The position numbers were made by a program, and so were the translations under genes. This document shows positions 9,901 to 64,000 of a stretch of 64,000 nt of DNA, one piece after another. Below the pieces are notes generated by a model. That model saw only the letters and a list, made by a program, of their open reading frames with translations, had not been told where the DNA came from and ran no database searches. Positions within the stretch are counted from its first letter, which is position 1; each line of letters starts with the position of its first letter. The DNA comes from an uncultured virus (IMG/VR IMGVR_UViG_3300028833_000145) (Duplodnaviria > Heunggongvirae > Uroviricota > Caudoviricetes), in IMG/VR virus record IMGVR_UViG_3300028833_000145. One strand, 5' to 3'.

Positions 9901-10225
9901 CAGCACTTATGACTTTTGCATCTTCTTGAAGTTGTTCAATGTCCTAAGAGTTTGTCTCAACTGTAGCTTTAAGCTCACCAAGAGAGACGCCATCAACTGT
10001 TGCCTAAGCTAGCTCTACGCCTTCTAGTTCACTGTCTATGATCTTCAAACCAGACAAGATACCGCTGGTGATATTCATCTTGCCATTGAAAGTTCCATAG
10101 AATTGGTTTTCTGGATTGATAAGAATCACTTTCTGTGGGCTCATTCCATCATCTTTAGAGCCTGGCTTGCGCAAGATTGTTAAGTTTTCTTTGATACGAT
10201 TATGCAAATCTGTGTATGTAGACAT
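6956..10225 (-). CDS. Large tail fibre-like virion protein (1089 aa, TAG=Gln) with coiled-coil and beta-rich segments
   Basis: Track ORFs 10004-10225, 8855-9811, 8249-8752 and 7847-8032 share a frame; first non-TAG stop is TGA 6956. IDTTDFVKDGML motif is typical of phage fibres. Confidence 0.7.
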
Positions 10226-10305
10226 CTCTTTGTAGTCCTTATGCTCTCTTATTTAGATATTTACCTAGTCATCATATCTACACCTAATTTGGTATAACTA
10301 TTATC

Positions 10306-10854
10306 ATGAGTCTAAAAAGCAAAAAAAGATCATCTAAGAAAGAAAAGCCAAGAATAGACTTAGTGTTTCACTTTCTTGATCCAGAAGTTGATGTTGAGCT
10401 TGAGGATGGATGGTTTGATGAAGACTCAGAAAAAGAGCTTTTAGACTTGATTGATGGACTCAAGAAGTCTATCTGGATTGACAAGACATATGTTGGTTTT
10501 GAAGAATCTAAATATTCAGATGTCTTTTTGACCGAAGATGGCTGGAAGCATCTCTGTGAGATGATTGTTCTCTCTGGATTTGGAAAGTTTCTTCCAACTT
10601 CAGGTCAGGAGCAACTTGCTGAAGCATATTCAATCATGGTTGTCTGTTATCTCTATAATGAGATAATAAAGAGGGGTTGGGATTTTGAGCACATAAAGAT
10701 AACTCCAAGCAAAGAAGAAGACATTGAAGCTGAGATATATCTTGACCAAACTCCAAATGACTCATGGAAAGACTATAAAGGAACTTGGCAAGATCTTGAA
10801 GAAGAAGCCGAGAAGAATGCTAAGAAATCAAAAGAAAATGACCAAAAAGACTGA
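10306..10854 (+). CDS. Hypothetical protein
   Basis: 182-aa ORF, ATG to TGA, no internal TAG. Confidence 0.7.
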   Translation: MSLKSKKRSSKKEKPRIDLVFHFLDPEVDVELEDGWFDEDSEKELLDLIDGLKKSIWIDKTYVGFEESKYSDVFLTEDGWKHLCEMIVLSGFGKFLPTSGQEQLAEAYSIMVVCYLYNEIIKRGWDFEHIKITPSKEEDIEAEIYLDQTPNDSWKDYKGTWQDLEEEAEKNAKKSKENDQKD

Positions 10855-10884
10855 GGTTTTAGACTTTGTAAGTATAATATAATT

Positions 10885-11103
10885 ATGGCTAAGACTCCTC
10901 AAGAGATGTACTATGCAACTTTCAAAGGAAAGAAAGTTGATCTTTATCGTTTTGACAAGCGACTCATCAGACGTTTCAATATGAAGTCTGAAGTTGTCAA
11001 TGCTTAGATTCAAAGCTCCGGCAAAGATACATATGTAGCAATTGTCACTAAAGATGGCAAAGCATATCTCTATAAGAGCAATGGAACCTTAGTCAGACAG
11101 TGA
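10885..11103 (+). CDS. Small hypothetical protein (72 aa, TAG=Gln)
   Basis: ATG 10885 just after GTAAGTA; one TAG; TGA overlaps the next ATG (TGATG). Confidence 0.6.
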
Positions 11104-11792
11104 TGAAGGTTTGTTGCTACACATGCATAACTGGAGGATATGACTCTTTGAAGATGATCTCTGGCTAGAAGCCAGAGACTATGCAGCAAGTAGACTTCAT
11201 CTGCTTCACCGATGACAACTAGCTAAAGCAGCTAGATTGGCAAATGAGACCAATTCCGAGAGAGCTAGATGGCTTGAGCAAGGTGAAGCAGCAACGAGTC
11301 ATCAAGATATGTCCTCACAAGTGGCTAAGTGACTATGACATCTCTATTTGGGTAGATGGAAGCTTCTAGATAGTTGGTGATGTCATGAAGTTTGTATTTC
11401 AATATGACTTAGAGAAGACTCCATTATACACTAGAGTTCATCCAGCAAGAAAGTGCATATATGAAGAAGCTAAGGCTTGCATTTCTTTGAAGAAAGACTC
11501 AAGAGAAGTCATTGAGAAGTAGATAGCTAGATATAGATCTGAAGGATATCCAAAAAATGCTGGCATGTTTGAGACTGGTGTCATCTTGAGAAAGCACAAT
11601 GACATGAAGTGCTAGCTAGTATGCAATTGCTGGGCAAGTGAGCTTCTTGTAGGAAGTTGTCGTGACCAACTTTCATTCAACTATGCTTGCTGGAAGATGC
11701 ACTTCTTGCCAAGTTGTCTTAACACAGAGTTTAGCTTGCTTGGGAAGAGAGCAAACACATTTAGGTTGTGCAGACATGAACAAAAAAGATAA
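11103..11792 (+). CDS. DUF616-like glycosyltransferase (229 aa, TAG=Gln); absent from ORF track
   Basis: Motifs YTCITGGYD, FICFTD, IWVDGS, HPARKCIYEEA, GYPKNAGMFETGVILRKHN, RDQLSFNY. Confidence 0.8.
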
Positions 11793-14646
11793 CAATTAGA
11801 CATTCCTGAATCTAGTAGTCTAGAAAGTTGACTCCGGCAACATTCAAGACTTTATGCGAGCTTGGCTTCGCTAGGAATGCAAAGACTTCAAGCTGGTGTT
11901 CATCTAGAAGAAGAATGCAAGTGATGAAGAGAAGAAAGCAATCACATACGCCTGTGGATTTGCTAGTGCAATTGGATATAGCGACCTTGTAGTTGCTGTC
12001 ACTTCAGAAGATGAAGTGCCAGAAGCAATGATGACAAAGATCTTGAAAAACACAAGCATTCTTCCAGTTGACAAGATGGAAGTGCTTAGAATGAGAGCTG
12101 AAGTAGGTAAACAAAAGATTGAAAACTAGAAAATTGAAAAACTTGAATAGAAAGCTGAATAGAATATTGAGACAATGAATGCTATTGAGAACAAGCAAAA
12201 GCTTGTAGAAAAAGACAATACTACTAAGATGATGCCGCAATAGAAGTTAATGGATGATGAAGTTGGTTAGAAGAAAGAAGTTGAGAAAGTTAATGTTGCA
12301 AAACCTGTTGAGAAAGTCTTCTTCAAGATAATTGTGCCAAACTACAACAACATAGCATACATCAAGAAGTGCTTAGATAGTATTCTTGAATAGACATTCC
12401 AAGACTTCAAGATAATTGTTGTTGATGATTTGAGCACAGATGGAAGTGATAAGTTTTGTGAAACATATTCTAAAAAATATCCAGATAAGATCATATTTAA
12501 ACAGTTAGAGAAAAAAGGATATGCTGGAGCAGCTAGAAATGTTGGGCTTGACTATCCAATAGAATGCAAATATATCTTATTTGTTGATTCAGATGATTGG
12601 TTATATAATCTTGATGTATTAAAAAACATTCATAAATCGATATTAAACTCTAAGACAGATGTAAAGCTAATAAAAATGGCTATGTTTCATTTTTATGGAA
12701 AAAATGATTCTAGAAATTTTGTAAAGAAGTTTAAAGATGACTTAACATTAGAATATTCATTTTATAAAGGATGTGGACCTGGACGTACATGCATATCATC
12801 TGATTTAGCTAAATGCAAATTTAAAGAAAACAGACGAGTAGCTAATGATGTCATATGGTTTATGCGGTGCATTGACAACATAACTAGTAAAAATCTTTTA
12901 AACATATCTTTTCCGTGCTAGACTTATAATTGCATAAGTGTAACAAGTGGAACTAATATTATAAAGAAAAACAAAAAGTCTAAAGAATTTATATCATCTA
13001 TGAGATTGCTTTTGCAAGATCTTAAAGATGAAGTTTTTAAAACTAGCATTGTTAAAAACATATAGAGAAATCTCATAAATTTGTATTCTCTTCAATTTCC
13101 AGATCCAAAACCTGATATGAAAGAAAAATCAATTGTATCTTAGAATATTCCATCATCAATAAAGAACAATATAAAGTATGAACTTTAGACCTCTCTAAAA
13201 ACAGAAAACAAAATACATGTTTTACTTGTAAATTTTGGTAACACTATAGATTACACTCGTCAAGCTATAAATGATCTTTTAGTTTAGACTGAAGATTTTG
13301 ATTTGACAATAATTGACAATAATTCAGATACTTTAGATGCTAATCATAAGTATTTCAAGCTTCTTTACCATAATTGGAACTTTCCAAAAAGACATTTGCA
13401 TGTCATTGGACTTAAAAATACTATTGCACTAAACCATATATGGAATTCATTTTTTGAAATGACTTCAAATCCATGGTTATGTTTTTTGAATAATGACGTG
13501 TGCATTCCAGAAAATTTCATATCAGATGGCATTCAAGTGATTGAGAAAGAAAAAAATGTTGGAATAATAAATCATGCTACTAACAATCCAAAATATAAAG
13601 TATCAAACATTTTGAATTATAAAATATATGATAGAACATCTAATTCATTCATGCATCGTTAGGGATGGGACTTTACAATAAGTCGTGAAGTATTTATGAA
13701 AATTCCAGAAGAATTTTCTACTTTTGTTGGAGATAGCATATAGTTTAATAGTGCATATATAAAATCAAAAGATATAGTTTTCCTATATTCTTCTCCTATA
13801 ATTCATTATTGTTCAACTTCTAGAAAGAAAAATCGAGCATATTTTTATGAAGTGCTAAAAAAAGAAAGAGCATTGTTTTTATCAAATGACAAATATAAAG
13901 AATATGGAAATACTAACACATATGATGTTGATAAAAGTCTTTCTTTGATGAAACCTGAAGACATAAACCTTTTGAAACAAAATGTGTATTGCAATAAGAC
14001 TGACATCATAGTTTCTATGACTACACACCGTGGAAGAATATCAAACATTCCTAAAGTTCTTAAGTCGATTCTTAATCAAACATATAAACCAGCTAAGATC
14101 ATAATAAACATATCAATAGAAGAATTCAAGAATGAAAGAAGCATTCCGGATGATGTTTTTCATTTTATCATGACTAATAACATCGAATTGAATTGGGAAA
14201 AAACAAACACTAAAGTCTATAAGAAAATAATTCCAACTTTATTGAAATATAAAAATAGCTTAGTTCTTTCAATTGATGATGATTTTATTTATCCAACAAC
14301 CATGATAGAGGATTTCTATAATATATATAAGAAAAATCCTAATTCTCCAATATCTGGCAATAGAATAACTAAATTTGGAATGGATTGTCATTGTGGATGT
14401 GCAAGTCTAGTTCAATATAAGTTCTTTGGCATTTATATTGAAGACTATCTAAAATATTATAGTCATTGTCCAAGTAGTGATATATTTTTCACTATGACAG
14501 CACTTAAAAATGGCTATAAGTATGTTAGAACAAAAAATTTGTATTTTAAAAACCTAAAAACTATACCAAGTAATTATGGTTATTCAAAGGGTGGCTCAAT
14601 AAACATGATTAATGTTACATATAATTGGTTAAAGAAAAATATATGA
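11776..14646 (+). CDS. Multidomain glycosyltransferase with three GT2/GT-A domains (956 aa, TAG=Gln)
   Basis: One frame to TGA 14646. IIVPNYN..CLDSILE*TF..VDDLSTD..FVDSDD; second domain LLV*T..IIDNNS..FLNND; third domain SILNQTY..SIDDD. Confidence 0.85.
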
Positions 14647-15344
14647 AAAACATTGATAATTTTATATCGCTTGGTTAGGATTGCAGTACATTTCTGTTTA
14701 TAACTCCAACAAATAAACATAAAGCTGGATTTTTTGATAGATTTGCAATTTATTCTAGTGATTATTTAAAATTTTTTGATAAAGATTTCTTGTTAAAGAA
14801 CAAAAACAACATATAGATATATTGTAAATCATCAATATAGCATCTATTAAAAATATTTTCATTAGTAAAAAATAAGCAAATTCATAAAAAAATGCGATTG
14901 CATTTTTTAATCATATATGGTGACAAATATGATAATGGTCTTATAGATGTTATTCATGTTGATAATGCTATTTTATATAATTTAGTTTAGTCCAATGATT
15001 TGCAGTCTTTTTTGCTTAAGATCGAACATAATGTTATTCCACACATAAAAGATAGAATAATTAGAAATATTGAAAACCATCTTAAACTATTTGATAATCC
15101 AGACAATAAAAACTTATTTGTACGAACTGTTAAACATCATATGTCAGAAAAAGAAGCTGCTGATTTAAAACAACTAAATTCTATTATTCTTCAAAAATTC
15201 AAAAATTCAAAGCTCTTAGTAATCACTGATGTTAATGACAATCTAACATATAAGCTAGATTTTGTAAAGTTTTTGTAGTTTGATCATTGGAAATCTAATG
15301 AGATTGCCATTGCAAATTTTAACAAAATAGTAGAAGAATTTTAA
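14643..15344 (+). CDS. Hypothetical protein with DUF1796-like N-terminus (FISLG*DCS), TAG=Gln
   Basis: ATGA overlap with upstream gene; frame open except TAG to TAA 15344. Confidence 0.55.
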
Positions 15345-15355
15345 GGACACCAAAT

Positions 15356-16129
15356 ATGAACAACAAAATCAAAGTCGGAATAATTGGCTGTGGATTCATT
15401 GGCACAGCTTTGAATGAGTGGCTCAAGCAGAGCAACCCAGATGTTGAGACAAGAGTAAGTGACCCTCCAAAAGGGATAAATGATGACATAAGCAATTGTG
15501 ATGCTTACTTCATCTAGATCCATCTGCCAACAGAAGCAGATGGGACATAGAACACCTAGCTTCTTGAGAGCTTAGTTGCAAAGTGCCCAGACAACACACC
15601 AATCTGGATTCGCACAACAATACTTCCTGGGACATCAGCAATGCTGTCAAAGAAGACTGGAAAAGTTGTGTATCATATGCCTGAGTTCTTGACTGAACGC
15701 ACTTACCTTGAAGACTTCAAGTGGCAGCCAATGGTGTTCACTGGAGCACCGGAGCATGTTGAGCTTCTCAAGAGCATATTTCCTAGTAAGAAGCACATCA
15801 TCATGAGCTCTGAAGAAGCTGAGATGGTGAAGTATGCACACAATGTGTTTGGTGCATTGAAGGTCACTTACTTCAACTGCATCTATGATCTCTGCCAAAA
15901 GAGAGGACTTGACTATAGCAAAGTCCGTGAAGGAGTGCTTGGCTCAACATACATCAATGCTCCTCACACACAAGTACCCGGGCCAGATGGCAAACGAGGA
16001 CTAGGTGGCAAGTGCTTTCCAAAAGATGTAAGAGCTCTAGAAAAAGCATTTAGATATACACCACTTGGACGACTAATTGAGCCAATAATGAAATTGAATG
16101 AAGAGTTCAGAGGAGAGATCTTGCTTTAA
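15356..16129 (+). CDS. UDP-glucose/GDP-mannose dehydrogenase family protein (257 aa, TAG=Gln)
   Basis: Rossmann IIGCGFIG, PEFL, AEMVKY, catalytic GGKCFPKD. Confidence 0.85.
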
Positions 16130-16152
16130 GCAAAATTGAATCTTAGCCAAAG

Positions 16153-16183
16153 AAGATGGATCACCATAGGGTGATCCATCTTT
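16153..16183. terminator. Bidirectional intrinsic terminator-like hairpin
   Basis: AAGATGGATCACC-ATAG-GGTGATCCATCTT between convergent genes. Confidence 0.75.
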
Positions 16184-16239
16184 GTCATCTAGGTTGGTCC
16201 TAAGGTAGCGAATCTCGGCACTCTAGATGAAATCGCTTG

Positions 16240-16731
16240 TCAAAAGTCAAATGCTATTCCTATCTCAATAGCTGGCTTTGGCTTGTTCTCATATGGAGCA
16301 TCATCAGAGTTGTTCAAGTCACTGAATGCTATCCATGGTCTTGGATTTGGCTTCTTTGGTTTTGGTTTCTTGAAAACTTCATTTGGATCAATTCCATCAA
16401 GTGGATCTCCACTTAGCAAATCCCAAACAGAAGAAGACTAGTTCATCAATGTATCCAAATAAGATAATGATTCACTATCTTTTGATTTTCTGTAGTTTTT
16501 AGGTTTCTTCCCAGTTAAGATAAAATCAGCTTCACTTGCATCCGAACTTAGCTGCTTGCTCTCTGTATCGATCTTTAATGAACTGCTCAAGCTAGTCAAT
16601 TCTGAGCTCTATTGCATCATGGTCATCTCTTGTGAGATTCCATGAATCTCTGATGACTTCTCTTCTGAGGTCTCTAAGCATCCTAGTGACACTTTCTGGA
16701 ATTGTTGGTTGTTGCATGATTTTGTTGTCAT
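16240..16731 (-). CDS. Hypothetical protein(s), TAG=Gln; alternative model is 16532-16717 plus 16240-16446
   Basis: Two overlapping frames are open once TAG is read through. Confidence 0.35.
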
Positions 16732-16746
16732 TGTGAAATCTTTATG

Positions 16747-18582
16747 TCAAGCTACACGAATCTTCTGTCCAATTCCTATCTTGTTTGGATCTTTGATTTT
16801 CTTGTTGAGTGCAAGAATCTTGTCAACCGTTGTCTTGTTGTCTCTTGCTATCTTTCCAAGTGTATCTCCACTCTTCACTACTACAACTACAGCTTTGTGC
16901 TACTTGTTCCAGTCTTTCCAAGTTGTCATTGTGCCTGGAACTACATATTTAGGATCATGCTCTGGAAGATATCCAAAATGGTGTGACCCAATCTTCAAAG
17001 TGCATTTCTTTCCCCATGTGTCAACATTTGACTTGTCAGCCTTCTCTTTGTTGATGTAAGCATTTCTGTTTCCAATAGTTGACTTGAATTTCTTGTCAAC
17101 TAAGTCAAGTGCAATAGAGTTGCACTCATCCCAAATAGCTTTGTTGTCTGGATTTTCAGCAATTGCCTTAGCCGGCACATACCAAAGATAAGTCTTATCT
17201 GTCCAACCTCCAGTATATCCCTTCAAGCATGTAAATGCACTTGGCTCTTTGAGAACAGCAATGATGTTTGATGGAGTGTTGTCAGCTCTGTTTAAGATCA
17301 CTGAAGCAACAGCTTTTCTTCCAGCCGTTCCTTCAGCTTTTCCTCTAGCTTCTTTCCAAAGGACTTGTGCAATAGCATTCACAACATTTGTCTTGCTCAT
17401 TTCACCAATCATCACATTTCCTACTGCAGCATTTGTTATTGCTTTCTTTGCTGCTGGAGAGTTCACGGTCAAAGCTTTGTCTGCTTGCTTTGCTTTGCCA
17501 AGCTCTTTTGCAAGTGGTGCTGCTGGAAGAAGATTTGGAATTGCCATCATAGCAGCAATGACTGACACTTTCACCAAGTTGCTAACACCTTCATCTAGAT
17601 TCTCAACTTCTTGAAGTCTCTAGACAAAAGCTTGAGCATCTGAATCTTGAAGGTGCTTCAAAGACATGTTGTCTTTGATGCTCTGCAAGATGACATCAAC
17701 TATCTCATTATCTTTGACTGCTTCACCATCTTGAAGTCGGTCATAGACCTTTATTACATCTTTCAAGATCTAGAGATACCCAAACTTCTCAAGAAACTTG
17801 AATGCCGCATCTACAACATGTTGTGTCCTGTCTTTACGACGCTTGAGAGCTTCTTCTTTAGACTTAGCATCTTTCTAGTAGTTAGATCTGACTTTCTTCA
17901 TTGTCTTGAAAAGCTTAGAAGCTGCTTCAAGTCTTTTGTAGATCTCTTTTACTTGCTCCTTCTTGAATCCTTCATCTTGAGTCTTGTAGCTAGTAAAAGC
18001 TAGTTCATAGAGTTCAAAGATCTTCTCACGAATGTCTTTGAGAATCTTGTCAACTTGCTTCATTGCATCAGCATAGTATTCAGAAACAGGATCAAAATCT
18101 TCGCTTTTCAACTCTGGACCAACTTCCCACTTCTTCTCTGTGAAGTTGTAGCAACCAACTGACATGAAGCACTAGAATGGATTTGGATTGAAATAGACTT
18201 CTAATGGATGAGTTCCTATCTTCGCATCTTCTGGAAACTTCTCCATGTAGTTCTCAATGAAGTTCTTCTTGAAAGCCCATCCAAACTCTTTGACGACATC
18301 TTCATCTGAATCATCTTGAGTAGCACCGGTTGCACAGAAATCAATGTCAATGTCAGAGTTCTCACTCCAAGAGTTGGAGCAAATAGAGCCAATGACATAT
18401 ACACTCAAGTTGTTGAAATGATATTGATCCTAAACCCACTCTAAAGCGGACTATAGCTTCCTAAGTGCTTCTTCAGACAGCACCGGCTTGCCGCTTCCTG
18501 GCACATTCTGCCATACCATAGGATCAAGTCCTGGCTTTGGTGTATCTAAAACAGATTCAAGAAGCTATAGAGCATCAAACAT
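16747..18582 (-). CDS. Fusion of nucleotidyltransferase-like domain, SleB/Hydrolase_2 cell-wall hydrolase and C-terminal LysM (611 aa, TAG=Gln)
   Basis: [19 protein letters not shown] (hGS..DxD); [53 protein letters not shown]. One frame from ATG 18582 to TGA 16747. Confidence 0.8.
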
Positions 18583-54435: not shown

Positions 54436-54474
54436 TTCTGACTGTCAACCAACCACTAAGAAAGGAAACCAAAG

Positions 54475-55335: not shown

Positions 55336-55863
55336 ATGAGCAAGATTGATGAGATGATTCGTGAAAACAGGCAAGAGTATGGAATTGATCTGCCTGAAGA
55401 TGAAGCTCGAGAGCTTGCTAAGCTGCAGCTGGAAGACCTCAAGCGGAAGGGCTGCACACTTGAGAACATTAGTGAGTGCCATGGGTGCTCAGCTACTAAG
55501 GATGGTTCTGAGTGTCCTCTGTGTGATTGGGAGAAACGCCATCCTGAATATGCCAATGATGAGCTTGCCAAGAGAATCAAAGCCCTTGAGAACAAATCTA
55601 GAGACAAGTTCAAAGCTGAGATGAAGTCCAAGGTCATTGGAGAGTTCAAGAAACTCAAGGTAGATGTTGACTTGACCGAGGCAGCTAGAGCACTTGAAAC
55701 CGCGGCTAGAGACATGATAGAAGCTGCTAGAGAATTTGAGGAAGTTGAAGGCCAAAACGATGAAGTCCAGCTCAAAGCTCTGGCTAAAGTCAATGAAGCT
55801 CTTGACAAGATCCGCCACAGCAAGCTTGGATTCTTCTTAGAGAGGACAAAGTGGTTTGCTTGA
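55336..55863 (+). CDS. Zn-finger (CxxC..CxxC) coiled-coil protein
   Basis: CHGC..CPLC followed by a helical region. Confidence 0.65.
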   Translation: MSKIDEMIRENRQEYGIDLPEDEARELAKLQLEDLKRKGCTLENISECHGCSATKDGSECPLCDWEKRHPEYANDELAKRIKALENKSRDKFKAEMKSKVIGEFKKLKVDVDLTEAARALETAARDMIEAAREFEEVEGQNDEVQLKALAKVNEALDKIRHSKLGFFLERTKWFA

Positions 55864-55926
55864 GATTGCCACAGCCTCAGCCTTTTGATATGATTCTGCT
55901 TGCTAACTGAAAGAAATGACAAAGCT

Positions 55927-56061
55927 ATGGATAGTGACAAAATCAAGACGGCTTTCGACTATGTAGTCTTCATCATTCTTGTAGTTGCTATAGCATCTAT
56001 AGTTCCAATTGGGACATGCATTGCAATTTGGATGGTGTTAAAAGCTGCAGAGAATTACTGA
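55927..56061 (+). CDS. Small membrane peptide (44 aa)
   Basis: Long hydrophobic helix after a promoter. Confidence 0.5.
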   Translation: MDSDKIKTAFDYVVFIILVVAIASIVPIGTCIAIWMVLKAAENY

Positions 56062-56134
56062 TTGGATTTGGATGTTGCCACAGCCTCAAGCTTTTGATAT
56101 AATTCTGGATGTCAACCACTCAAGGAAATCACCA

Positions 56135-56338
56135 ATGCCAGAGACCTGTATCTACAAACTTGACTACCAGCATCACTCAAGCTTTTCATTTGCTTGGGAT
56201 GAAATGCATGCAACTGAGATAGTTGAAGCACCCAAGAACATTGGCTTCAGAGAGCTTGAGACTCTATGCCATCAGAAGATTCCTGGATTCTGGGCTTTGA
56301 ACAATTTCGAGGAAGTCTATATTCGGAAGCTTGTGTGA
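56135..56338 (+). CDS. Small hypothetical protein
   Basis: Promoter plus AAGGA. Confidence 0.55.
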   Translation: MPETCIYKLDYQHHSSFSFAWDEMHATEIVEAPKNIGFRELETLCHQKIPGFWALNNFEEVYIRKLV

Positions 56339-56361
56339 CCAACAAAGAGGAGAAACATCGT

Positions 56362-56453
56362 TGGTTGGGGAGCTGGGATTCGAACCCAGACCGACGGCTT
56401 CAGAGGCCAAAGGGTTTTAGAGACCCTCGTGCTAACCACTACACTACTCCCCA
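56362..56453 (-). tRNA. Amber suppressor tRNA (anticodon CUA) with Gln-type acceptor stem and an extra anticodon-like arm carrying CUG
   Basis: TGGGGAG TA GTGT-AGTGGTTA-GCAC G AGGGT-CTCTAAA-ACCCT TTGGC-CTCTGAA-GCCGT CGGT CTGGG-TTCGAAT-CCCAG CTCCCCA A CCA. Confidence 0.92.
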
Positions 56454-56465
56454 ATCAGAGATTCA

Positions 56466-56473
56466 TATTTATA
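56466..56473 (-). promoter_or_regulatory. T4-late-type promoter TATAAATA upstream of the tRNA
   Basis: Plus strand TATTTATA, 12 nt before tRNA position 1. Confidence 0.55.
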
Positions 56474-56536
56474 TTTTATTGGAAGTGCTTAGAATCTTAG
56501 TTGCCAAAGTTGCTTTGCTTTGATATAATTCTGAGC

Positions 56537-56818
56537 ATGGAAAGCAACAACACAACCACTAAGATGAAGATTGTCCTTGCAAAGAAGCCTAGCAGCACTG
56601 AGTTCTGTGTCTGTGACTATAGCACCTTGAAAGTGCTTGATGTCTTTGATCTCAGCAAGCTCACTCTTCCACAATGCGTCAACATGCTCAAAGACCACTA
56701 TGAGATTGCTGGATTCCTCAGCCATGGAATGATCATTCCTCTAGTTGGCCTCATTCCTAGCCATGAAGACAAGCGAATCGAAGATGTGCATGAGCGCTTA
56801 GCTAAAGTTGCAGCTTGA
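56537..56818 (+). CDS. Hypothetical protein
   Basis: ORF after a promoter. Confidence 0.6.
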   Translation: MESNNTTTKMKIVLAKKPSSTEFCVCDYSTLKVLDVFDLSKLTLPQCVNMLKDHYEIAGFLSHGMIIPLVGLIPSHEDKRIEDVHERLAKVAA

Positions 56819-56840
56819 GAAAAAGAAGGAGATTGGAAAG

Positions 56841-57113
56841 ATGGCTAGAAATGACAAAGAGCAGCTCTTCGACTGCATGATCACTTGTGGTGAGCTTGAC
56901 CCTGAGTGGTATGGCCACTACAAGAAAGACACTGTCATCCGAGAAGTGGCTAAGCACAATGTCACTGCAGAGGAAGCTAAGGCATGGCATGGCTCAGCTG
57001 AGTGCATGAAGCGTGTGCAGGAGCTTGAGGACCTTGGACGAGAGAAGTTTGGCAAAGACCACTGGATGAAGTGGAGTGTGAGCTACTTCTGGACAACTGC
57101 AGCGAAAGATTAG
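56841..57113 (+). CDS. Hypothetical protein (ends at TAG; TGA two codons later)
   Basis: RBS AAGGAG. Confidence 0.6.
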   Translation: MARNDKEQLFDCMITCGELDPEWYGHYKKDTVIREVAKHNVTAEEAKAWHGSAECMKRVQELEDLGREKFGKDHWMKWSVSYFWTTAAKD

Positions 57114-57184
57114 TCTTGAGGTTGCCACAGCCTCAGCCTTTTGATATAATTCTGAATGTCAATTGACCACTGAGGAGAGAACAA

Positions 57185-57361
57185 ATGCCATACCCATCTG
57201 ACCTCGACAACTTCAAAGCTAAAGCTCATGCTGAGTCTATCAAGCTTGCGAATTCAGCTGGAAGCCAACTTCAACTCTTGATTGAAGAGCAGTTAGTTGC
57301 AGCTTATGTTGCTGGCTACAAGCAGTGCGAAGAAGACTATCCACATCGGACTATGGACTGA
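57185..57361 (+). CDS. Small hypothetical protein (58 aa)
   Basis: Promoter plus GAGGAG. Confidence 0.55.
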   Translation: MPYPSDLDNFKAKAHAESIKLANSAGSQLQLLIEEQLVAAYVAGYKQCEEDYPHRTMD

Positions 57362-57393
57362 AGATCAGTGTAGCAATTGGTGAGGAGAAATAG

Positions 57394-57876
57394 ATGAGAA
57401 ACTTCACTGCTAGCCAGACTCGTGAATATGAGAAGTCAAACTCACTTGACAGGATTCCTTGTCTAGAAGGTCTAGACACTGGCTGCAAGGCTGAGATCCT
57501 AGAAGGTGCTTCGGATGCAGTCTCTAGGACTAGAGTTGGCCAGAAGTTCATTGACTGTGTGTGCAAGAAGGCTGGAGTTCCTTCTGTCATGCTTTGGGTC
57601 AAAGATCAAAGCCAGCTTCATCGAGATGACAAAGCTCTTGGAACTCTGAAGCAGAAGACGCTTGGCCGCTATTGGCATGCTGGAAGCAATGGAAAGAAGA
57701 TTGAGATCTGGAATCTGACAGCCAAACGTGGGAAGGTTGTAGCAGCCAAGACATTCTGGAACACTCTCTGCCATGAGCTCTGCCATCACCTTGACTGTGC
57801 AAAGCTAGGACTGGCAAGTTCATTCCACTGTGCCGGATTCTACAAGCGAATCTCATTTCTTGAGTCCCTTGGATGA
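57394..57876 (+). CDS. SprT/WLM-like HExxH metallopeptidase
   Basis: TLGRY..TLCHELCHH..HCAGFY. Confidence 0.7.
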   Translation: MRNFTASQTREYEKSNSLDRIPCLEGLDTGCKAEILEGASDAVSRTRVGQKFIDCVCKKAGVPSVMLWVKDQSQLHRDDKALGTLKQKTLGRYWHAGSNGKKIEIWNLTAKRGKVVAAKTFWNTLCHELCHHLDCAKLGLASSFHCAGFYKRISFLESLG

Positions 57877-57953
57877 CTCGAGTGGTGATTCCAAGTTGCC
57901 AAGCTCAAGTGCATTTGATATAATTCCGGCATCAACCACTAAGGAGAAACCAA

Positions 57954-58106
57954 ATGAAAAACTATCTCACAACCTATCTCAATCCAAAAACTAACACCAC
58001 AGTCACAAAGACTTATTCTAACATCTCTCCAGAGACCCTCCAAAAGTACATCTCACTCTACACTTCGCTCTCTGGATTCCAGTTTGTGTCTTCTGCTGAA
58101 ATCTGA
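57954..58106 (+). CDS. Small hypothetical protein (50 aa)
   Basis: Promoter plus AAGGAG. Confidence 0.5.
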   Translation: MKNYLTTYLNPKTNTTVTKTYSNISPETLQKYISLYTSLSGFQFVSSAEI

Positions 58107-58249
58107 TTCACACTGCCTATCTCACCTTTCCTTTCTAATCCTCAGTCTCTCTGGGGATTTTTCATTTCATCTTCTTGCATAGTTGCCAAGATTTCTATAG
58201 CTTGATATAATGACAACATAACCACCACAAAGTGAAAGGAAACAAACAA

Positions 58250-58495
58250 ATGAAGAAGCTCTTGATCCTGCCGATTCTTGCACTTGGTCTTGCTGGGTGT
58301 GGAAATCTTGACATGTTTGACACCAACTTCACTTACCACTATGCTTTGACAAAGTGGCCTGATGGGACAACAAAGAAGATTGAGATCAAGCAGTGGTGTG
58401 ACTATGAAGGTGAGCAGATCCAGATCATCTCTCCAGATGGGAACATCTATCTGCTGTCAATGAACAACACTGTTCTTGTCCGTGAAGGAAAGTGA
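58250..58495 (+). CDS. Lipoprotein
   Basis: MKKLLILPILALGLAG-C lipobox. Confidence 0.75.
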   Translation: MKKLLILPILALGLAGCGNLDMFDTNFTYHYALTKWPDGTTKKIEIKQWCDYEGEQIQIISPDGNIYLLSMNNTVLVREGK

Positions 58496-58496
58496 C

Positions 58497-58637
58497 ATGG
58501 AGACAATCCAAATCTCTGGACAGTGGTATGCAATCCGCTGGGAAGATGACTCTAAGACAAAGTTCCAGATTGTTGCTGGACCATTTGCCGAAGAGCATTG
58601 GGCAAGAAGCATGGCTCGCTTGAATGAGCTTGACTGA
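58497..58637 (+). CDS. Small hypothetical protein
   Basis: 46-aa ORF abutting the upstream stop. Confidence 0.45.
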   Translation: METIQISGQWYAIRWEDDSKTKFQIVAGPFAEEHWARSMARLNELD

Positions 58638-58657
58638 ATTCAGAAAGAGAGGAAACT

Positions 58658-58819
58658 ATGGAGACTTGGGAGATGCGTCAACGTCGCTTGAGAGCTGAAG
58701 CTAAGAGAGCAAAGATCAAGAGAGCAATTGGTGATGTCTTTGGCTCAGCAGCATTCTTTGGAATGCTATTTGTCTTCTGCTGGCTTTGCTGTGCAGCTAG
58801 CGGATATCATTGGGAGTGA
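58658..58819 (+). CDS. Small membrane protein
   Basis: GAGGA RBS; C-terminal TM helix. Confidence 0.5.
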   Translation: METWEMRQRRLRAEAKRAKIKRAIGDVFGSAAFFGMLFVFCWLCCAASGYHWE

Positions 58820-58899
58820 GAATCAAAGTTGCCAAGTTGCAAGACTTTTGATATGATATAATGAGTGCACAACCAAATGGATGAAAGGAAATGATTTAG

Positions 58900-59214
58900 A
58901 TGAAAGCTGAAACAACTTTGACTGATGCTGAATGGGAAGAGAAGTTCAATAGCCCTCGCAACCAGCTTCTCAAAGAGATATTTGGTGACACTCCTTGCCA
59001 AGTGAAAGACATCTCACCTAAAGTGGTCATCAAAGATGAGAATTGGGACAGAGGAAATGACTTCATGGTGAATGGACGTCCTCGAATCCACAAGAACTCA
59101 AACTCTGATCTTTGCTCGGTTGCACGTTGGAATGACCAGATGCGATCAACTGGAAAGATTGTCAGCCAGATGAAAGATGAGCCAGCTGAAGTCTCTAAGC
59201 TGGAGAACCGATGA
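58900..59214 (+). CDS. Hypothetical protein
   Basis: Promoter plus AAAGGA. Confidence 0.6.
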   Translation: MKAETTLTDAEWEEKFNSPRNQLLKEIFGDTPCQVKDISPKVVIKDENWDRGNDFMVNGRPRIHKNSNSDLCSVARWNDQMRSTGKIVSQMKDEPAEVSKLENR

Positions 59215-59461
59215 TTTGAGAGGTCACTCTCTCCAGAGAGGCAGAAGAAAGGAAGTTGATTTCATCCGAGCTGCAGGAAAGAAATGCAGCAAGTGGTTGG
59301 ATGATGGTAGGAAGCATGAGAGTGGGTGGTTCCCTCTCTAGCCTGCGAAGCTATGGGTCTCCTTTCCCCTTTCCGTAGCAGGCTATGATTTTCTATAGAC
59401 AACTCAAGCTTTCTAGATTGCCTAAGTGATCTAGCTTGATATAATTCTTAGCGTGACAACC

Positions 59462-59974
59462 ATGACAATGGATGAGTTGAGGTCTTTAGCAAGACGTGAT
59501 GAGATTCTCTCAAAAGAAGAATCTTTCTCCATGACCGTTGAAGATCTCTATTGGTACTCTCACTTCAGGAAGAAGTGGCTTGAGAAGCTGAATAGAGAAG
59601 AAACACCAAGCGAAGAAGACTTGCTCCCGGTCCTCAAGATTCTAGATGATGGATCTCTTGAAGTCAAGATCAAAGGCACTAGCAAGTACTACCATGTCAC
59701 TGCACATGCTGTCAAGCGATTCAAAGAGAGAACTGATGCACTTCAGCACCATGATCCTCTGAAGTATCTAGCTAAAGAGCTTCGAGATGCTATGCCTGCT
59801 AAGCTTGCTAATGCTAAAGGGCAAGTTCTGGCCCTTCTCAACCACAACTTAGAGCATGCCAGATACATGCTTGGACGACGAACTAAGGTCATTTGGGTTC
59901 TCGTTGGAGATGTTGTCAAGACCTGCCACATGAATGAGAGCAAGAGGTATGTTGCCATAGTTGAGAAGTCTTGA
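59462..59974 (+). CDS. Hypothetical protein (T.HA..RF.ER motif)
   Basis: VTAHAVKRFKER resembles a motif common in small phage nuclease-like domains. Confidence 0.6.
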   Translation: MTMDELRSLARRDEILSKEESFSMTVEDLYWYSHFRKKWLEKLNREETPSEEDLLPVLKILDDGSLEVKIKGTSKYYHVTAHAVKRFKERTDALQHHDPLKYLAKELRDAMPAKLANAKGQVLALLNHNLEHARYMLGRRTKVIWVLVGDVVKTCHMNESKRYVAIVEKS

Positions 59975-59990
59975 TATAATTCTGCTTGCT

Positions 59991-60305
59991 ATGAAGATTG
60001 AAGTTCTGCCAAACAACTTGAACGAGAAGACTCGTGGACAACATGTCAAGGAAGAGAAGTTGAGAAGCATTCTCAGTGAATCCATCCAGAAGATTGTTGT
60101 CAACAAGTGTGTCAATGGTGCTGAAGCTGATTCAACAATGAACAGTCTCATGACTTTGATCATGGCTTGCCAGATGCTCTGGAATGAGCTTGAAGATGTG
60201 AAAGAAGAGCTTGCTAAAGCTAGAGCTGATGTTGATGATGCCTTTGAGCGTGGCTACAACACTGGAAGTCTTGAGACGGAGCATTCAATGCAAGAGAATG
60301 CTTGA
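59991..60305 (+). CDS. Hypothetical coiled-coil protein
   Basis: ORF after a promoter. Confidence 0.6.
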   Translation: MKIEVLPNNLNEKTRGQHVKEEKLRSILSESIQKIVVNKCVNGAEADSTMNSLMTLIMACQMLWNELEDVKEELAKARADVDDAFERGYNTGSLETEHSMQENA

Positions 60306-60409
60306 GTGGCTTGGTTGCCAAAGCTTGATAGCTTTGATATAATTCCAAGTGTTCCGAGAACTAAACCAACTCGAAACAAAAAACCAAACCACAAACGAAA
60401 GGAAATCAA

Positions 60410-60898
60410 ATGAAATACATCCACACAACCGCTTCAACCACCTACACAACCAAAGGTTGGAAGAAATCCAAGGATGGTTCGCTCTACAAGCCTTGCAAAG
60501 ATTCTAAAGCCGCTTACCAAAAAGAAATTGACCAAACTCTCTTCTCAAAGAAAGTCAAGGTCGAAGATCTTCCTCAAGCCACTTGGTTCCTCGGAGGCTG
60601 CGACTGTCCTAATGACTTGATCAAGCACAAAATCTCAGACATCATCTATCGCTTGGTCCGGATACTCGAAGAAAACCAGAAGCTTGAGTCTCAGAACAAG
60701 AAAGCTACAGTCAACATCAACTGGCTCGAAGAAGCAAAAGATAATCTCGAGAAAGTTCTTGGAATTGCAATTCTCTACAATCGCTACAACACCACCTATG
60801 GCGATTTCTTCTCTGGCTCGGATCGCGACTCAAAGCTTATCTCTAAGCTCAAAACCGAATTAGTCGACTCACTCAAACGCTATGGCTTAAAGGTCTAA
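60410..60898 (+). CDS. Hypothetical protein
   Basis: Promoter, A/C-rich leader, AAAGGA RBS. Confidence 0.65.
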   Translation: MKYIHTTASTTYTTKGWKKSKDGSLYKPCKDSKAAYQKEIDQTLFSKKVKVEDLPQATWFLGGCDCPNDLIKHKISDIIYRLVRILEENQKLESQNKKATVNINWLEEAKDNLEKVLGIAILYNRYNTTYGDFFSGSDRDSKLISKLKTELVDSLKRYGLKV

Positions 60899-60920
60899 GC
60901 CAATCATTCATATAAATCCG

Positions 60921-60952
60921 AAATCCCTAGGTCTCAACCACCTAGGGATTTT
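60921..60952. terminator. Intrinsic terminator
   Basis: AAATCCCTAGG-N9-CCTAGGGATTTT between convergent genes. Confidence 0.75.
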
Positions 60953-60981
60953 CAGCAGCCTCAAGCTTTCAGCTGTGGTTC

Positions 60982-61503
60982 TCAGCTATCTTTCTTATCT
61001 TCTTTGTCTTCCTTGACAGCCTCATACTTGATGAAGTTCTCTTTTCTGAAAGAGCGAAATCCCTTAGCCTCAAGATCCCAGTAGACGATTATTGTTGGTG
61101 GGACGAAGTGCTTCTTCTTGCCATCCTCAACTTTCTTGTCAGTAGCCTTAGCTCCATCCATCAGGTCGGCCTTCAGAGTTCCGACAGCCTCACGTGTTGA
61201 GCCATCAACTTTCTTGAAAGAGAACTTGACCTTGCCAGCTTTCAGAGCCTCAAGAAACTTCTTCTCTACAGCCTCAGACATTGACTCATTCATTCTGCTG
61301 TCAAGATACACATTGTCCTCAACTTCATATCCTCTCTCTTCTGCAAAGTCTCGCATCTCTTCACCAAACTTCTCAGGATCTTGCATTGAGCTGTGCTTTG
61401 AGAGAAACTCTTCAGTCATCTTCTTGAGCTCTGGATCTTTTCCGCTGTACTTAGGACCTTCTTTCAGGCCATCCCACACAATTGAGCACACTTTTCTTGC
61501 CAT
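60982..61503 (-). CDS. WYL_2/SH3-fold phage protein
   Basis: VKFSFKKVDGSTREAVGTL..YWDLEAKGFRSFR. Confidence 0.7.
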   Translation of the reverse strand: MARKVCSIVWDGLKEGPKYSGKDPELKKMTEEFLSKHSSMQDPEKFGEEMRDFAEERGYEVEDNVYLDSRMNESMSEAVEKKFLEALKAGKVKFSFKKVDGSTREAVGTLKADLMDGAKATDKKVEDGKKKHFVPPTIIVYWDLEAKGFRSFRKENFIKYEAVKEDKEDKKDS

Positions 61504-61589
61504 ATCTTAGTCTTTCATTGTTGTTTCTGTTATTTACCCCTAGAGTCTAGTTGCCAAGGCCACTTGCTCTTGATAGAATATCTAGCATC

Positions 61590-61856
61590 ATGAGTCGCTC
61601 TTATCGAAAGTACAAAGGCTTGAACCACACTTGGTCTGATACAAAGCAAGGCAAAGCCATCAAGAAGATCTCGCATCGCCAGATTCGAGCCAAAGCTAAA
61701 GCATCAGAAGATGGAGTTGAGCTTGCAAAGAAGTGTGCTCGAGGAAACCGCTATGATGGCAAGTCCTTCTCCGAATCTGACTATGAATACATGGCTTCCA
61801 AGAGATCTCATGGCTACTCTCCAAAGCGGGTCAAGCATAGGCTTCTAGGGAAGTGA
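61590..61856 (+). CDS. Small basic protein
   Basis: MSRSYRK start; K/R-rich. Confidence 0.6.
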   Translation: MSRSYRKYKGLNHTWSDTKQGKAIKKISHRQIRAKAKASEDGVELAKKCARGNRYDGKSFSESDYEYMASKRSHGYSPKRVKHRLLGK

Positions 61857-61911
61857 TTGCCAAATTCTTAGGTTTTTGATATAATGTTAGCTGAAAGGAC
61901 AACAAAGACCT

Positions 61912-62619
61912 ATGGCTAGATTTTGGACAAGTGATTTCCATCTGAACAGCACAGCAATCATCCAATATGCTGGGCGGCCTTTCAAGTCTGGGATGAAGAT
62001 GGCCGAAGCTTATGTGCGGTCTTGCAACCAGCAAGCTAGAGATCCTAATGACATGATAATCCATGTTGGTGACTTCTACTTGAAAGGCAAGGATCGCCAT
62101 GGCATTGGTGATGAAGGTCTCAAGATTCCTGCCAAGGAGTGGCTGAGCAAGATAAATGCTCAGGTGTTTCTGATTGAAGGAAACCATGATGACTCTAACA
62201 TTGGCCACACCCATGCCAAGCAGCTGATTCTTGACCTTGGACCTTTCAAGAACACTTCAGTGTCACATTATCCTTCTACTGACAAGGGAACTTGGACATT
62301 GAAAGGCTTTGACAAGGAGCATCTCCACATCCATCTCTGTGGTCATGTCCATGAGAAGTGGAAATGGAAGCTTGATCTCCAAGACAAGTTTGTGCTGAAC
62401 ATCAATGTTGGTGTTGACCAGTGGAAGCAGCAGATAGTGTCAGAGAAGAAGTTGATTGGCTATATCAGTTCACTTCTCCACTCTCAGGAGCTCAGAGATC
62501 AGCTCTATCCTGAAGCTGCAGCTCTTGCTAAGAGCATGGCTCCGTGTCTGCCTAGCAAATGGGGTGATGATCCTGCTGAGATGACCTGGACTCCTGGCGA
62601 GCCAAGTGAGAAGTGGTGA
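61912..62619 (+). CDS. Calcineurin-like metallophosphoesterase (paralog of 20738-21379)
   Basis: DFH, HVGD, GNHD, GHVH, NVGVD. Confidence 0.85.
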   Translation: MARFWTSDFHLNSTAIIQYAGRPFKSGMKMAEAYVRSCNQQARDPNDMIIHVGDFYLKGKDRHGIGDEGLKIPAKEWLSKINAQVFLIEGNHDDSNIGHTHAKQLILDLGPFKNTSVSHYPSTDKGTWTLKGFDKEHLHIHLCGHVHEKWKWKLDLQDKFVLNINVGVDQWKQQIVSEKKLIGYISSLLHSQELRDQLYPEAAALAKSMAPCLPSKWGDDPAEMTWTPGEPSEKW

Positions 62620-62680
62620 TAGGTTGCCAAGACCTCATTGCTTTGATATAATTCTGTGCGTAAATAGGAGATGAACAGCT

Positions 62681-64000
62681 ATGAACACACTATTTGCAAA
62701 GCACATACTTTCAGTTCCTACCATCTCTGGCAAGGAAGATTTCTTCATTGACTGCATCAAGAAGTGGTGCAAGATTGTAGGAATTCGAGTAGATCAAGAT
62801 GGCAAAGGAAACCTCTACTTGAGAAAAGGTGACTGTGATGGCAAGGATTGGGTTCCTTGTCTTTGCTCTCATCTTGACACTGTCCACAGAAAGTATCTTC
62901 CTTACATCCAGAGAAAAGAGCTTCTTCCAGTCCAGATTGATGGAGATCGTCTCTTCATCAATGGCATGGGAATTGGTGCTGACTGCAAAGCTGGTGTGGC
63001 AATCTGCCTCAGTGTCATGAGAAAAGTCAAGAGGTGCAAGTGTGCACTCTTTGTTGAGGAAGAGACCGGCATGCAGGGTTCCAGAGCTCTTGACAAGTCA
63101 TTCTTTGACAATGTCAGTTATGTTCTCTCTTGGGACTCTCCAGGTGGAAACCGTGCTACAAAGACTTCTTCTGGTGTTCCAATGTTCACTGATGAATTCT
63201 TCAAGATCATCGAGCCTATCTACAAAGGCCATGGTGTGACCAACTGGAAGCATGAGCCATTCACAGACACGGTGCAGATCGTCAAGCAGCTTGGAATCTG
63301 CTGTGTGAACTGCAAGAATGGTGGAGGAATGAATGCTCACACCGACAAAGAAGATGCTAGCATATCTGAGATGAATGACTCTGAGCAGCTCTGTTTGGAT
63401 GCATTAGACAAGATTCCTTGTGACAGGAAGTGGGAGATCAAGTATGAAGAGCCGAAGTGGGAGCCTTCTAAGTGGCACAACACGGGCAAGAGCTATGGCA
63501 GCAAGCTGAGCCATGAGCCGGATCTTGACAATGATGATGAAGACTTTGGAAGCTATGTAGATGAGCTCTTTGGACTAGATGGTGAAGACTCATGGGAGAA
63601 CCATGATGACACAGAGATGTGCCAGTTTGAGTTCACCTATGATGATGAAGATCAGTTCAAGTTGCACAAAGAGCTGTGTGAGCAAGAAGATTTGCCAGTT
63701 ACATTCACTGGATTCAGCGAAGTTCGTGGAACTGCTACAGCTGAAGGTGAGCTTCAAAGCATAAAAGATGCTTATGTCTTGTGGTATCAGATCTTCTATG
63801 ATGACCCATCAGTCAAGACTTGGGAGCGGCTTGAAGCTATGGATGACCTCACAGAGTTCAGTGATGGCATCATCTTTCTAGAGGGCTTAGAAGACATTGA
63901 GAGTGTAGATGATGTCCGACCAGAAGATCTTGATGATGATGAAGAGGATGAAAAAGAAGAAAAAGAGAAGAATCCTCAGCAGATGGACCTGTTTGACTGG
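62681..64000 (+). CDS. M20/M28-family zinc peptidase with acidic C-terminal extension; runs off the window
   Basis: SHLDTV, GADCKAG, EEETGMQGS, HTDKE; 440 codons with no stop and no TAG. Confidence 0.8.
   Translation, partial: MNTLFAKHILSVPTISGKEDFFIDCIKKWCKIVGIRVDQDGKGNLYLRKGDCDGKDWVPCLCSHLDTVHRKYLPYIQRKELLPVQIDGDRLFINGMGIGADCKAGVAICLSVMRKVKRCKCALFVEEETGMQGSRALDKSFFDNVSYVLSWDSPGGNRATKTSSGVPMFTDEFFKIIEPIYKGHGVTNWKHEPFTDTVQIVKQLGICCVNCKNGGGMNAHTDKEDASISEMNDSEQLCLDALDKIPCDRKWEIKYEEPKWEPSKWHNTGKSYGSKLSHEPDLDNDDEDFGSYVDELFGLDGEDSWENHDDTEMCQFEFTYDDEDQFKLHKELCEQEDLPVTFTGFSEVRGTATAEGELQSIKDAYVLWYQIFYDDPSVKTWERLEAMDDLTEFSDGIIFLEGLEDIESVDDVRPEDLDDDEEDEKEEKEKNPQQMDLFDW

Follow-up and report, generated by a model that had tools for sequence, protein, structure and literature searches.

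The window analysed here is a 64,000-nucleotide (nt) stretch of DNA from an uncultured virus of the Caudoviricetes (IMG/VR record IMGVR_UViG_3300028833_000145), in which the codon TAG is read as glutamine in some genes and appears to end others. How a gene uses TAG follows the sequence at the head of its transcription unit: in-frame TAG is confined to units headed by the 7-nt motif GTAARTA and is absent behind an array of near-identical σ70-type promoters. The phage probably uses two genetic codes, assigned gene by gene by transcription class. We call the two classes late and early, names that are drawn only from promoter type and gene content.

Our gene table holds 83 called genes, covering 90% of the window, and each gene was assigned to the unit of the nearest upstream motif on its own strand. 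In-frame TAG codons are distributed over the resulting classes as follows.

Late-motif units: 27 genes, 24 with TAG; 11,892 codons; 148 in-frame TAG (12.4 per 1,000)
Early-promoter units: 35 genes; 3,873 codons; 0 TAG, against 48.2 expected at the late rate (P = 1e-21)
Other genes (weak σ70-like promoter or none recognised): 15 genes; 2,421 codons; 0 TAG, against 30.1 expected
TAG-free genes downstream in late units: 6 genes; 1,095 codons; 0 TAG, against 13.6 expected (P = 1e-6)

Late and early units differ strongly by Fisher's test (24 genes with and 9 without TAG against 0 and 35; P = 2.6e-11), also among genes of at most 200 codons (6 and 6 against 0 and 46; P = 2e-5). Base composition does not explain the missing early TAG, because off-frame TAGs are common in early genes (70 and 39). 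Nor is the test circular, because the early open reading frames (ORFs) were also opened without TAG as a stop. When ORFs from early or other starts are closed only by TAA or TGA, TAG is found only 2–34 codons before their ends. The original prediction, an earlier note on this DNA, had placed every TAG-bearing gene in a GTAARTA-headed unit, and this holds for all 24, as first or co-directional downstream genes. Its statement that no gene behind an early promoter has an internal TAG also stands, including for the 440 codons at 62681-64000. It had counted TAG in 12 of 15 motif-headed first genes; the 12 are borne out, and the denominator is 16. As a pattern, its broader idea of early genes in the host code and late genes recoded is well supported. 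That concept was already in print, and for this window the order of the two classes in time is presumed from promoter type and gene content.

The clearest natural control of this partition is a single gene embedded in the early array on the opposite strand, which the prediction had singled out as obeying the rule. It does so, and its Pfam assignment is real.

53522..53845, minus strand: STAS-domain gene (anti-sigma-antagonist type), antisense in the early array; Pfam STAS 7.2e-18; 3 in-frame TAGs
53874..53880, minus strand: GTAAGTA heading this gene, 28 nt upstream of its ATG

As a SpoIIAA- or RsbV-like protein made by the phage, its product may interfere with a partner-switching sigma network of the host.

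The motif itself is strongly enriched. GTAARTA occurs 16 times in the window (6 matches on the plus strand and 10 on the minus strand) against a mean of 6.15 (standard deviation 2.5), and none of 100 dinucleotide-preserving shuffles reaches 16. All 16 sites lie 3-75 nt upstream of a same-strand start codon; positions no more than 80 nt upstream of any of the 83 called starts make up only 5.2% of strand positions. Inside genes the motif is avoided, with one exception at 52947, where it overlaps the end of a 48-codon ORF. The form HTAARTA gives 31 matches, 24 of them inside genes, and hence the G at position 1 looks essential. No conserved column that could represent a -35 box is seen upstream of the motif, either in the 16 window sites or in all 34 sites including those of relatives. 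Fifteen motifs had been predicted; the sixteenth stands at 62660, in the leader of a unit with an early promoter as well. Besides the site before the STAS gene, the motifs and the units they head are the following.

10258..10264, minus strand: GTAAATA; heads 6956-10225 (11 TAG) and four downstream tail-fibre-like genes
10868..10874, plus strand: GTAAGTA; heads 10885-11103 (1 TAG) and the glycosyltransferase/UDP-glucose dehydrogenase genes to 16129
19388..19394, minus strand: GTAAGTA; heads 18582-19376 (1 TAG), endolysin-like 16747-18660 (8 TAG) and 16240-16731 (2 TAG)
20176..20182, minus strand: GTAAATA; heads 19436-20140 (4 TAG)
28770..28776, minus strand: GTAAGTA; heads 27131-28744 (14 TAG) and 23313-27134 (15 TAG); divergent pair with 28793
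28793..28799, plus strand: GTAAGTA; heads 28834-29403 (3 TAG)
30186..30192, minus strand: GTAAGTA; heads 29468-30175 (2 TAG); ortholog motifs at L003 13994 and L004 14075
32593..32599, minus strand: GTAAATA; heads 30799-32517 (2 TAG) and 30253-30774 (2 TAG); motif and leader kept in L001-L004
33812..33818, minus strand: GTAAATA; heads 32671-33804 (0 TAG)
33826..33832, plus strand: GTAAGTA; heads 33836-35905 (11 TAG); divergent pair with 33818
38907..38913, plus strand: GTAAGTA; heads 38952-41024 (8 TAG); L004 ortholog has GTAAATA at 7165, minus strand
43099..43105, minus strand: GTAAGTA; heads 42596-43093 (5 TAG), 41666-42592 (12 TAG) and 41032-41619 (0 TAG); L004 ortholog motif at 4228
52947..52953, plus strand: GTAAATA in the early array, before 52964-53518 (0 TAG); overlaps the stop of a 48-codon ORF; may be chance
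61531..61537, minus strand: GTAAATA; heads WYL_2 gene 60982-61503 (0 TAG, 173 codons)
62660..62666, plus strand: GTAAATA in the leader of 62681-64000 (0 TAG), 8 nt after early promoter 62624; chance or dual promoter

L001 to L004 in this list are the four loci of relatives that we used; the contigs that carry L003 and L004 measure 432,079 bp and 121,742 bp, respectively. The motif is conserved there. L003 holds 6 sites against 1.17 expected and L004 holds 7 against 1.32, and all 18 sites in the four loci have an ATG within about 50 nt downstream (contexts read by eye). They precede orthologs of 32671, 30799, 29468, 27131/28834, 33836 (in L003 only), 42596 and 38952, in flanks that have diverged. 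Back-to-back outward motifs occupy the divergent intergenic regions 28745-28833 (89 nt) and 33805-33835 (31 nt). Both flanking genes' promoters must sit in these regions. The 28770/28793 pair is kept in L003 (15397/15421) and in L004 (15479/15499). From these sequence features, GTAARTA behaves as a compact promoter element without a -35 box and is a candidate late promoter. A literature search for GTAAATA as a phage promoter gave only primer-type matches among the titles listed.

RNA contigs from two runs of one study that fall on 26000-45999 are short, of low depth and lie on late genes. RNA contigs cannot show transcript starts and the library may contain DNA, and they were not counted as evidence. 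Among the RNA pieces listed, two end at 32587 and 33798, 6 and 14 nt downstream of GTAAATA, an anecdotal observation.

TAG stands for glutamine in this phage. In the first 44 kb, ORFs are short under the standard code and reach up to 1,273 codons once TAG is read through. Greedy ORF tiling of 1-44,052 covers 0.65 of the sequence with code 11 and 0.93 with TAG as sense, against 0.77 with TGA and 0.71 with TAA as sense. There is no TAG-specific gain in 44,053-64,000, where reading TAG as sense raises coverage from 0.74 to 0.78, below the spurious gains from TGA or TAA. The identity of the residue was read from alignments of seven ortholog groups drawn from L001-L004 and the window itself, in which X stood for TAG. 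The homologs are recoded relatives and not standard-code proteins, and one doubtful member of one group (L001_357, 24% identical) adds noise to the count. Among 193 residues opposite TAG, glutamine is the most frequent (Q 53), followed by E 25, K 25, A 13, R 13, T 11, S 10, D 8, N 7, M 7, G 7, L 4, C 3, H 2, P 2, V 1, I 1 and F 1; Y and W are absent (0 each). In late-unit genes, TAG makes up 34% of the glutamine codons, beside 187 CAA and 98 CAG, and 1.2% of all codons.

The TAG-bearing families with a PHROG or Pfam annotation are YadA-like/tail-fibre proteins, Hydrolase_2 with LysM, GT2, UDP-glucose dehydrogenase and STAS; most others have no match. The main features of the recoded part are listed below.

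3..43093: TAG-recoded late-type part, with tail-fibre-like genes, endolysin, glycosyltransferases and many proteins without match
3-10225: TAG-bearing tail-fibre-like proteins with YadA-like repeats
16747-18660, minus strand: endolysin-like, Hydrolase_2 and LysM; 8 TAG
11.6-16.1 kb: low-G+C island (G+C 0.28-0.32 over 12000-16000, against about 0.40) with a GT2 glycosyltransferase and a UDP-glucose dehydrogenase

Its genes are a 1,002-codon ORF that has GT2 domains and 18 TAGs, an ORF of 239 codons and the UDP-glucose dehydrogenase gene; these are surface-sugar genes in the recoded code. Within late-unit genes TAG is 1.6-fold denser in the first 75 codons (36 in 2,022 codons) than further in (112 in 9,869), a weak effect. 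A TAG falls among the first 75 codons in 17 of the 24 TAG-bearing genes.

The promoters of the early class form a compact array. TTGCCW-N14-TGATAKRAT matches 23 times, against 0.00 in 100 shuffles, and a further site with a 16-nt spacer lies at 59418. This makes 24 promoters, one fewer than the 25 of the original prediction.

50389..62652, both strands: array of 24 near-identical σ70-type promoters, 21 on the plus strand and 3 on the minus strand
Starts of -35 hexamers, plus strand: 51654, 52357, 52772, 53893, 54408, 54775, 54989, 55272, 55866, 56075, 56501, 57122, 57896, 58183, 58829, 59418, 59952, 60315, 61551, 61857, 62624
Starts of -35 hexamers, minus strand: 50417, 51105, 51608

The consensus is G-TTGCCA-N14-TGATATAAT, in full G-TTGCCA-ag..ct......TT-TGATATAAT-Tctg..tgt.aa, that is, a promoter with an extended -10 element. 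Each early promoter is followed by a small ORF, and most of these have a Shine-Dalgarno-like AAGGAG or GGAAA. The early proteins are mostly orphans, with Pfam matches (E<=0.01) for 3 of 40 and PHROG matches (E<=0.001) for 6 of 51. L003 and L004 contain no strong early-type promoters; both loci cover late-type DNA only.

Several side observations concern these early units. The cassette is conserved past the -10 element (TTCTGnnTGTCAA), and this initial transcribed region could be a shut-off operator; AACCAC...AAGGA is common to many early leaders. Only 7-11 nt separate the -10 element from the ATG in several early first genes, whose mRNAs may accordingly be leaderless or nearly so. The promoter unit at 54775-54988 (plus strand) holds only a 5-codon ORF (MKRLY*), then about 150 ORF-free nt, and may be a small RNA or leader peptide unit. 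Downstream of promoter 50417, between early-strand genes, 49362-50100 (minus strand) is a stretch of about 700 nt that is G+C-rich, filled with CCAGG and GGCC and closed by stops in all frames. The surrounding 49300-50150 has no Rfam match, and its fold is no more stable than those of shuffles (z = -0.68).

In the standard-code genes TAG is used sparingly as a stop (TGA 36, TAA 9, TAG 4 across these classes). The four genes that appear to end at TAG each have a second stop close behind.

44609..44629, plus strand: terminator TAG-AGC-TAG-AGA-GCA-TGA-TGA
45666..45674, plus strand: terminator TAG-ACA-TAG of the 45381 gene, whose L004 ortholog is also TAG-ended; start of the following gene at 45689
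46898..46930, plus strand: TAG stop with TAA ten codons later
57111..57119, plus strand: TAG-TCT-TGA stop of early gene 56841-57113, directly before promoter 57122

In L004, at 626-1217 (minus strand), the 45381-45668 gene is tandemly duplicated; the TAG of copy 1 overlaps the ATG of copy 2, and copy 2 ends at TGA.

The window also encodes a tRNA able to read TAG.

56362..56453, minus strand: tRNA with anticodon CUA, found by ARAGORN; Rfam tRNA 62.4 bits; antisense between two early units
56466..56473, minus strand: -10-like element TATAAATA, 12 nt upstream of the tRNA; no match to GTAARTA

The tRNA(CUA) gene and the early unit beginning at 56075 are convergent. The tRNA shows U1:A72 and A73, and an insert of 18 nt gives it a long variable arm. 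The U1:A72 pair and the UGGGG start occur in two other phage tRNA(CUA) genes from IMG/VR. Its body appears Gln-like, with U1:A72, the UGGGG start and a D-arm resembling those of other phage tRNA(CUA) genes, to which the long arm is added. Thirteen tRNA(CUA) genes are found among 25 IMG/VR loci with the same anticodon stem, and two of them (89 and 87 nt) have long arms; the one in L010 has the arm core GCCTCTGAAGC and the T-arm in common with the window tRNA. A serine, leucine or tyrosine suppressor, which a long variable arm might indicate, was considered and rejected on the residue count (S 10, L 4 and Y 0 against Q 53 of 193). The Rfam scan returned the tRNA only, and no HDV-like (hepatitis delta virus) or theta ribozyme adjoins it.

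On the tRNA the original prediction does not hold. It had taken the sequence before the tRNA as a late signal and the tRNA as late-expressed; its two-key lock, with a phage late sigma and such a tRNA, is thus a hypothesis. The preceding sequence is A-TAAATA, within TATAAATA, without the essential G1, and TATAAATA has a single match in the window against 0.94 expected. Late expression of the tRNA is without basis, because HTAARTA variants are scattered inside genes (24 of 31) and G1 therefore seems essential. No convincing σ70-type promoter was seen on the tRNA's strand either. In the model of the Borges et al. preprint (bioRxiv 10.1101/2021.08.26.457843), suppressor tRNAs are made early, during the standard-code phase.

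Two larger blocks of TAG-free genes lie outside the early array.

20217..23280, minus strand: TAG-free block of about six to seven genes, downstream in a late unit; includes a metallophosphoesterase
44141..46900, plus strand: TAG-free seven-gene operon behind a weaker σ70-like TTAGAC-N18-TATAAT (by eye); three genes end at TAG

No recognised promoter of its own and no clear terminator were seen in 20217-23280. One ORF of this block (21682-22059) stands outside the gene table, and the six-gene downstream TAG-free class also includes 41032-41619. Two other weak σ70-like sites were seen by eye, ATGCCA-N15-TATAAT before 38864 and TTTGATATAAT, without a -35 box, before 35928. The metallophosphoesterase has a paralog in the early array, both belonging to phrog_547 (20738-21379, minus strand, in the TAG-free block; 61912-62619, plus strand, in the array).

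The phage to which the window belongs is very large, uncultured and of an unsampled lineage from the ruminant gut. A 377-residue TAG-free late protein has 33 homologs among metagenome proteins, on contigs up to 432 kb. Its AlphaFold model (predicted local distance difference test 61.8, predicted template-modelling score 0.36) is too weak for a structure search. Sheep-gut metagenome runs contain DNA of the window, and bovine and sheep gut runs match it partially. No relatives were found in INPHARED by DNA or protein search, in IMG/VR by tRNA pattern, protein or alignment, or among GTDB genome contigs. The consensus σ70 promoters, the Shine-Dalgarno sites and the LysM/Hydrolase_2 lysin suggest a host outside Bacteroidota, possibly a Firmicute.

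Taken together with the tRNA, the two promoter classes can be arranged into a mechanism; the timing of the classes, the kind of factor that reads GTAARTA and the moment at which the tRNA is made are what we infer in it. At least 24 near-identical extended -10 σ70 promoters would be read by unmodified host RNA polymerase, presumably at the start of infection. They would drive small, mostly orphan genes in the standard code, in which TAG would be a real terminator. GTAARTA would be a late promoter of the -10 type for a polymerase that the phage modifies or encodes, much as the T4 late promoter TATAAATA is used. This element would drive the tail-fibre, lysin and glycosyltransferase genes together with many without known function, and the phage tRNA(CUA) would decode their TAG codons as glutamine. 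Late transcription apparatus and sufficient suppressor tRNA would then both be required for late proteins to reach full length.

T4 late promoters consist of TATAAATA at -10 without a -35 box and are read by the host core polymerase with gp55 and gp33. Like them, GTAARTA is short and A+T-rich (7-8 bp), lacks a -35 box, precedes late genes at a distance of a few to tens of nt and is distinct from early σ70-type promoters. Unlike them, it has an obligatory G, and no gp55, gp33 or gp45 homolog was seen in the window. Membership of GTAARTA in the T4-type late promoter family was considered and fails on sequence, since G1 is required here, against TATAAATA in T4.

Several observations weigh against an assignment of the code by these two promoter classes. 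Four of the 16 motif-headed first genes are TAG-free (32671-33804, 52964-53518, 60982-61503, encoding WYL_2, and 62681-64000). By simple arithmetic at the late rate, a gene of 173-184 codons would lack TAG with a probability of about 0.1, and one of 360 codons with a probability of about 0.01; zero TAG in the three small motif-headed genes is within chance. The orthologs of 32671-33804 do hold TAGs (1 in L003, 3 in L004, 4 in L002). Chance may account for the sites 52947 and 62660, which are within early units and on their sense strand. Some 22 TAG-free genes are preceded by neither motif, so that part of the partition is left unexplained by the two. In the relatives, the L004 ortholog of 33836 has GTAATTA in place of GTAARTA (read by eye), and the first ~9 kb of L003 holds TAG-containing ORFs with no GTAARTA inside the locus. 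Clear virion or lysis annotation is found for only 6 of the 24 TAG-bearing genes; several others encode enzymes (GT2, UDP-glucose dehydrogenase) or regulators (STAS). Finally, neither promoter type lies upstream of the tRNA(CUA) gene, and no sigma factor, RNA polymerase, release factor or glutaminyl-tRNA synthetase was found among the window proteins scanned with Pfam, PHROGs and NCBIfam.

The strongest form of the coupling, in which code and promoter class are tied at single-gene resolution as a true double lock of late transcription and amber suppression, is a tentative proposal to which we give limited credence. Were it correct, the TAG-x-TAG and TAG-x-TGA ends would keep standard-code products terminating once the suppressor appears. 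The tRNA gene is convergent to strong early transcription, which could then delay the code switch until early shut-off; this last point is speculation.

A simpler scheme with one key is itself rather unlikely. Here GTAARTA would be read by host polymerase with a host sigma factor, or constitutively, timing would be set by the suppressor tRNA alone, and the link with the motif would reflect the module. It would account for the lack of a phage sigma factor or polymerase among the scanned proteins and for the TAG-free first genes behind the motif (4 of 16), and the published model, as the Borges preprint describes it, needs only tRNA and release factors. However, GTAARTA has no -35 box, unlike the phage's own 24 consensus σ70 promoters. 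Its exclusion from coding sequence and the requirement for G1 fit a dedicated recognition factor.

The partition could also be a by-product of history, with the TAG-free genes being a fast-turnover accessory region of recent arrivals from standard-code sources and no regulation involved. The early proteins are nearly all orphans (Pfam 3/40, PHROG 6/51), early genes have a higher G+C content (0.459 against 0.398), and gene order in the accessory part differs among the window, L003 and L004, as this explanation would have it. It is nevertheless improbable in view of 0 in-frame TAG in 6,294 early and other codons where off-frame TAGs are common, of the use of TAG as a terminator with back-up stops, kept in L004, of the same phage-specific promoter cassette in every early unit, and of a TAG-bearing STAS gene behind a late motif inside the array.

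Least likely of all is that GTAARTA is an RNA-level signal of the 5' leader (a processing site, a translation enhancer or the site of a late translational activator) and not a promoter: its constant proximity to starts (3-75 nt), several sites being 5-11 nt before the ATG with no room for a Shine-Dalgarno sequence, would suit such a role, but the motif-to-start distance varies 25-fold, relatives do not share the sequence upstream of it, the preceding gene has terminator-like hairpins directly before the motif, and transcription must begin in the 89-nt and 31-nt divergent regions, because the two outward motifs are the sole conserved elements there.

A code assigned by promoter class would extend what has been described in other phages. 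The preprint of Borges et al. (bioRxiv 10.1101/2021.08.26.457843) sets out a model in which early genes use the host code and late structural and lysis genes are recoded, with the switch made by suppressor tRNAs, aminoacyl-tRNA synthetases and release factors. The code 15 (TAG = Gln) phages it describes with standard early and recoded late genes are Lak, crAss-like, Jade, Sapphire, Garnet and Amethyst. Block-wise dual coding is treated in the Mgcod preprint (10.1101/2022.06.29.495998), and related literature includes Peters et al. (PMC9523058), Yutin et al. (PMC7886860) and Kienbeck et al. (PMC10879173). As in the code 15 phages of Borges et al., TAG is glutamine here, the phage carries a tRNA(CUA), recoding is partial and includes structural and lysis genes, early genes are host-compatible, and gating of late proteins has been proposed. 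In contrast to them, the present lineage has no IMG/VR or INPHARED match, and the code is tied to two upstream motifs gene by gene; further details here are the TAG stops with back-ups and the long variable arm of the tRNA. Two text searches gave no sign that recoding has been linked in print to promoter classes: the word 'promoter' occurs 0 times in the Borges main text, whose supplements may hold more, and 'late promoter' occurs 0 times in the papers listed by a literature search.

The closest counterpart of the STAS gene is a homing endonuclease that the Borges preprint describes as an amber-gated single gene in the standard-code arm of Agate phages. Both are isolated TAG-bearing genes, the STAS gene lying in a TAG-free early region. 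Unlike the endonuclease, it also has a late-type motif and lies on the opposite strand, so that promoter and code change together.

What is new here is the lineage, the candidate 7-bp late promoter, a match between code and promoter down to the single gene, and the TAG terminators backed up by further stops. The early-standard/late-recoded model itself is already published, and our result leaves it unchanged. In current thinking the stop-to-sense switch of recoded phages serves as a lytic timer, an idea that rests mostly on the kinds of genes recoded. In this phage, the code that each gene uses can be predicted from two explicit upstream motifs with clean statistics, and a lone late-type gene in the early array obeys them. 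The candidate 7-bp late promoter, 24 interchangeable early promoters and natural TAG terminators that should read out suppression strength during infection provide testable handles. With a cultured host, should one be found, this lineage could show directly whether the gates on transcription and on translation work jointly.

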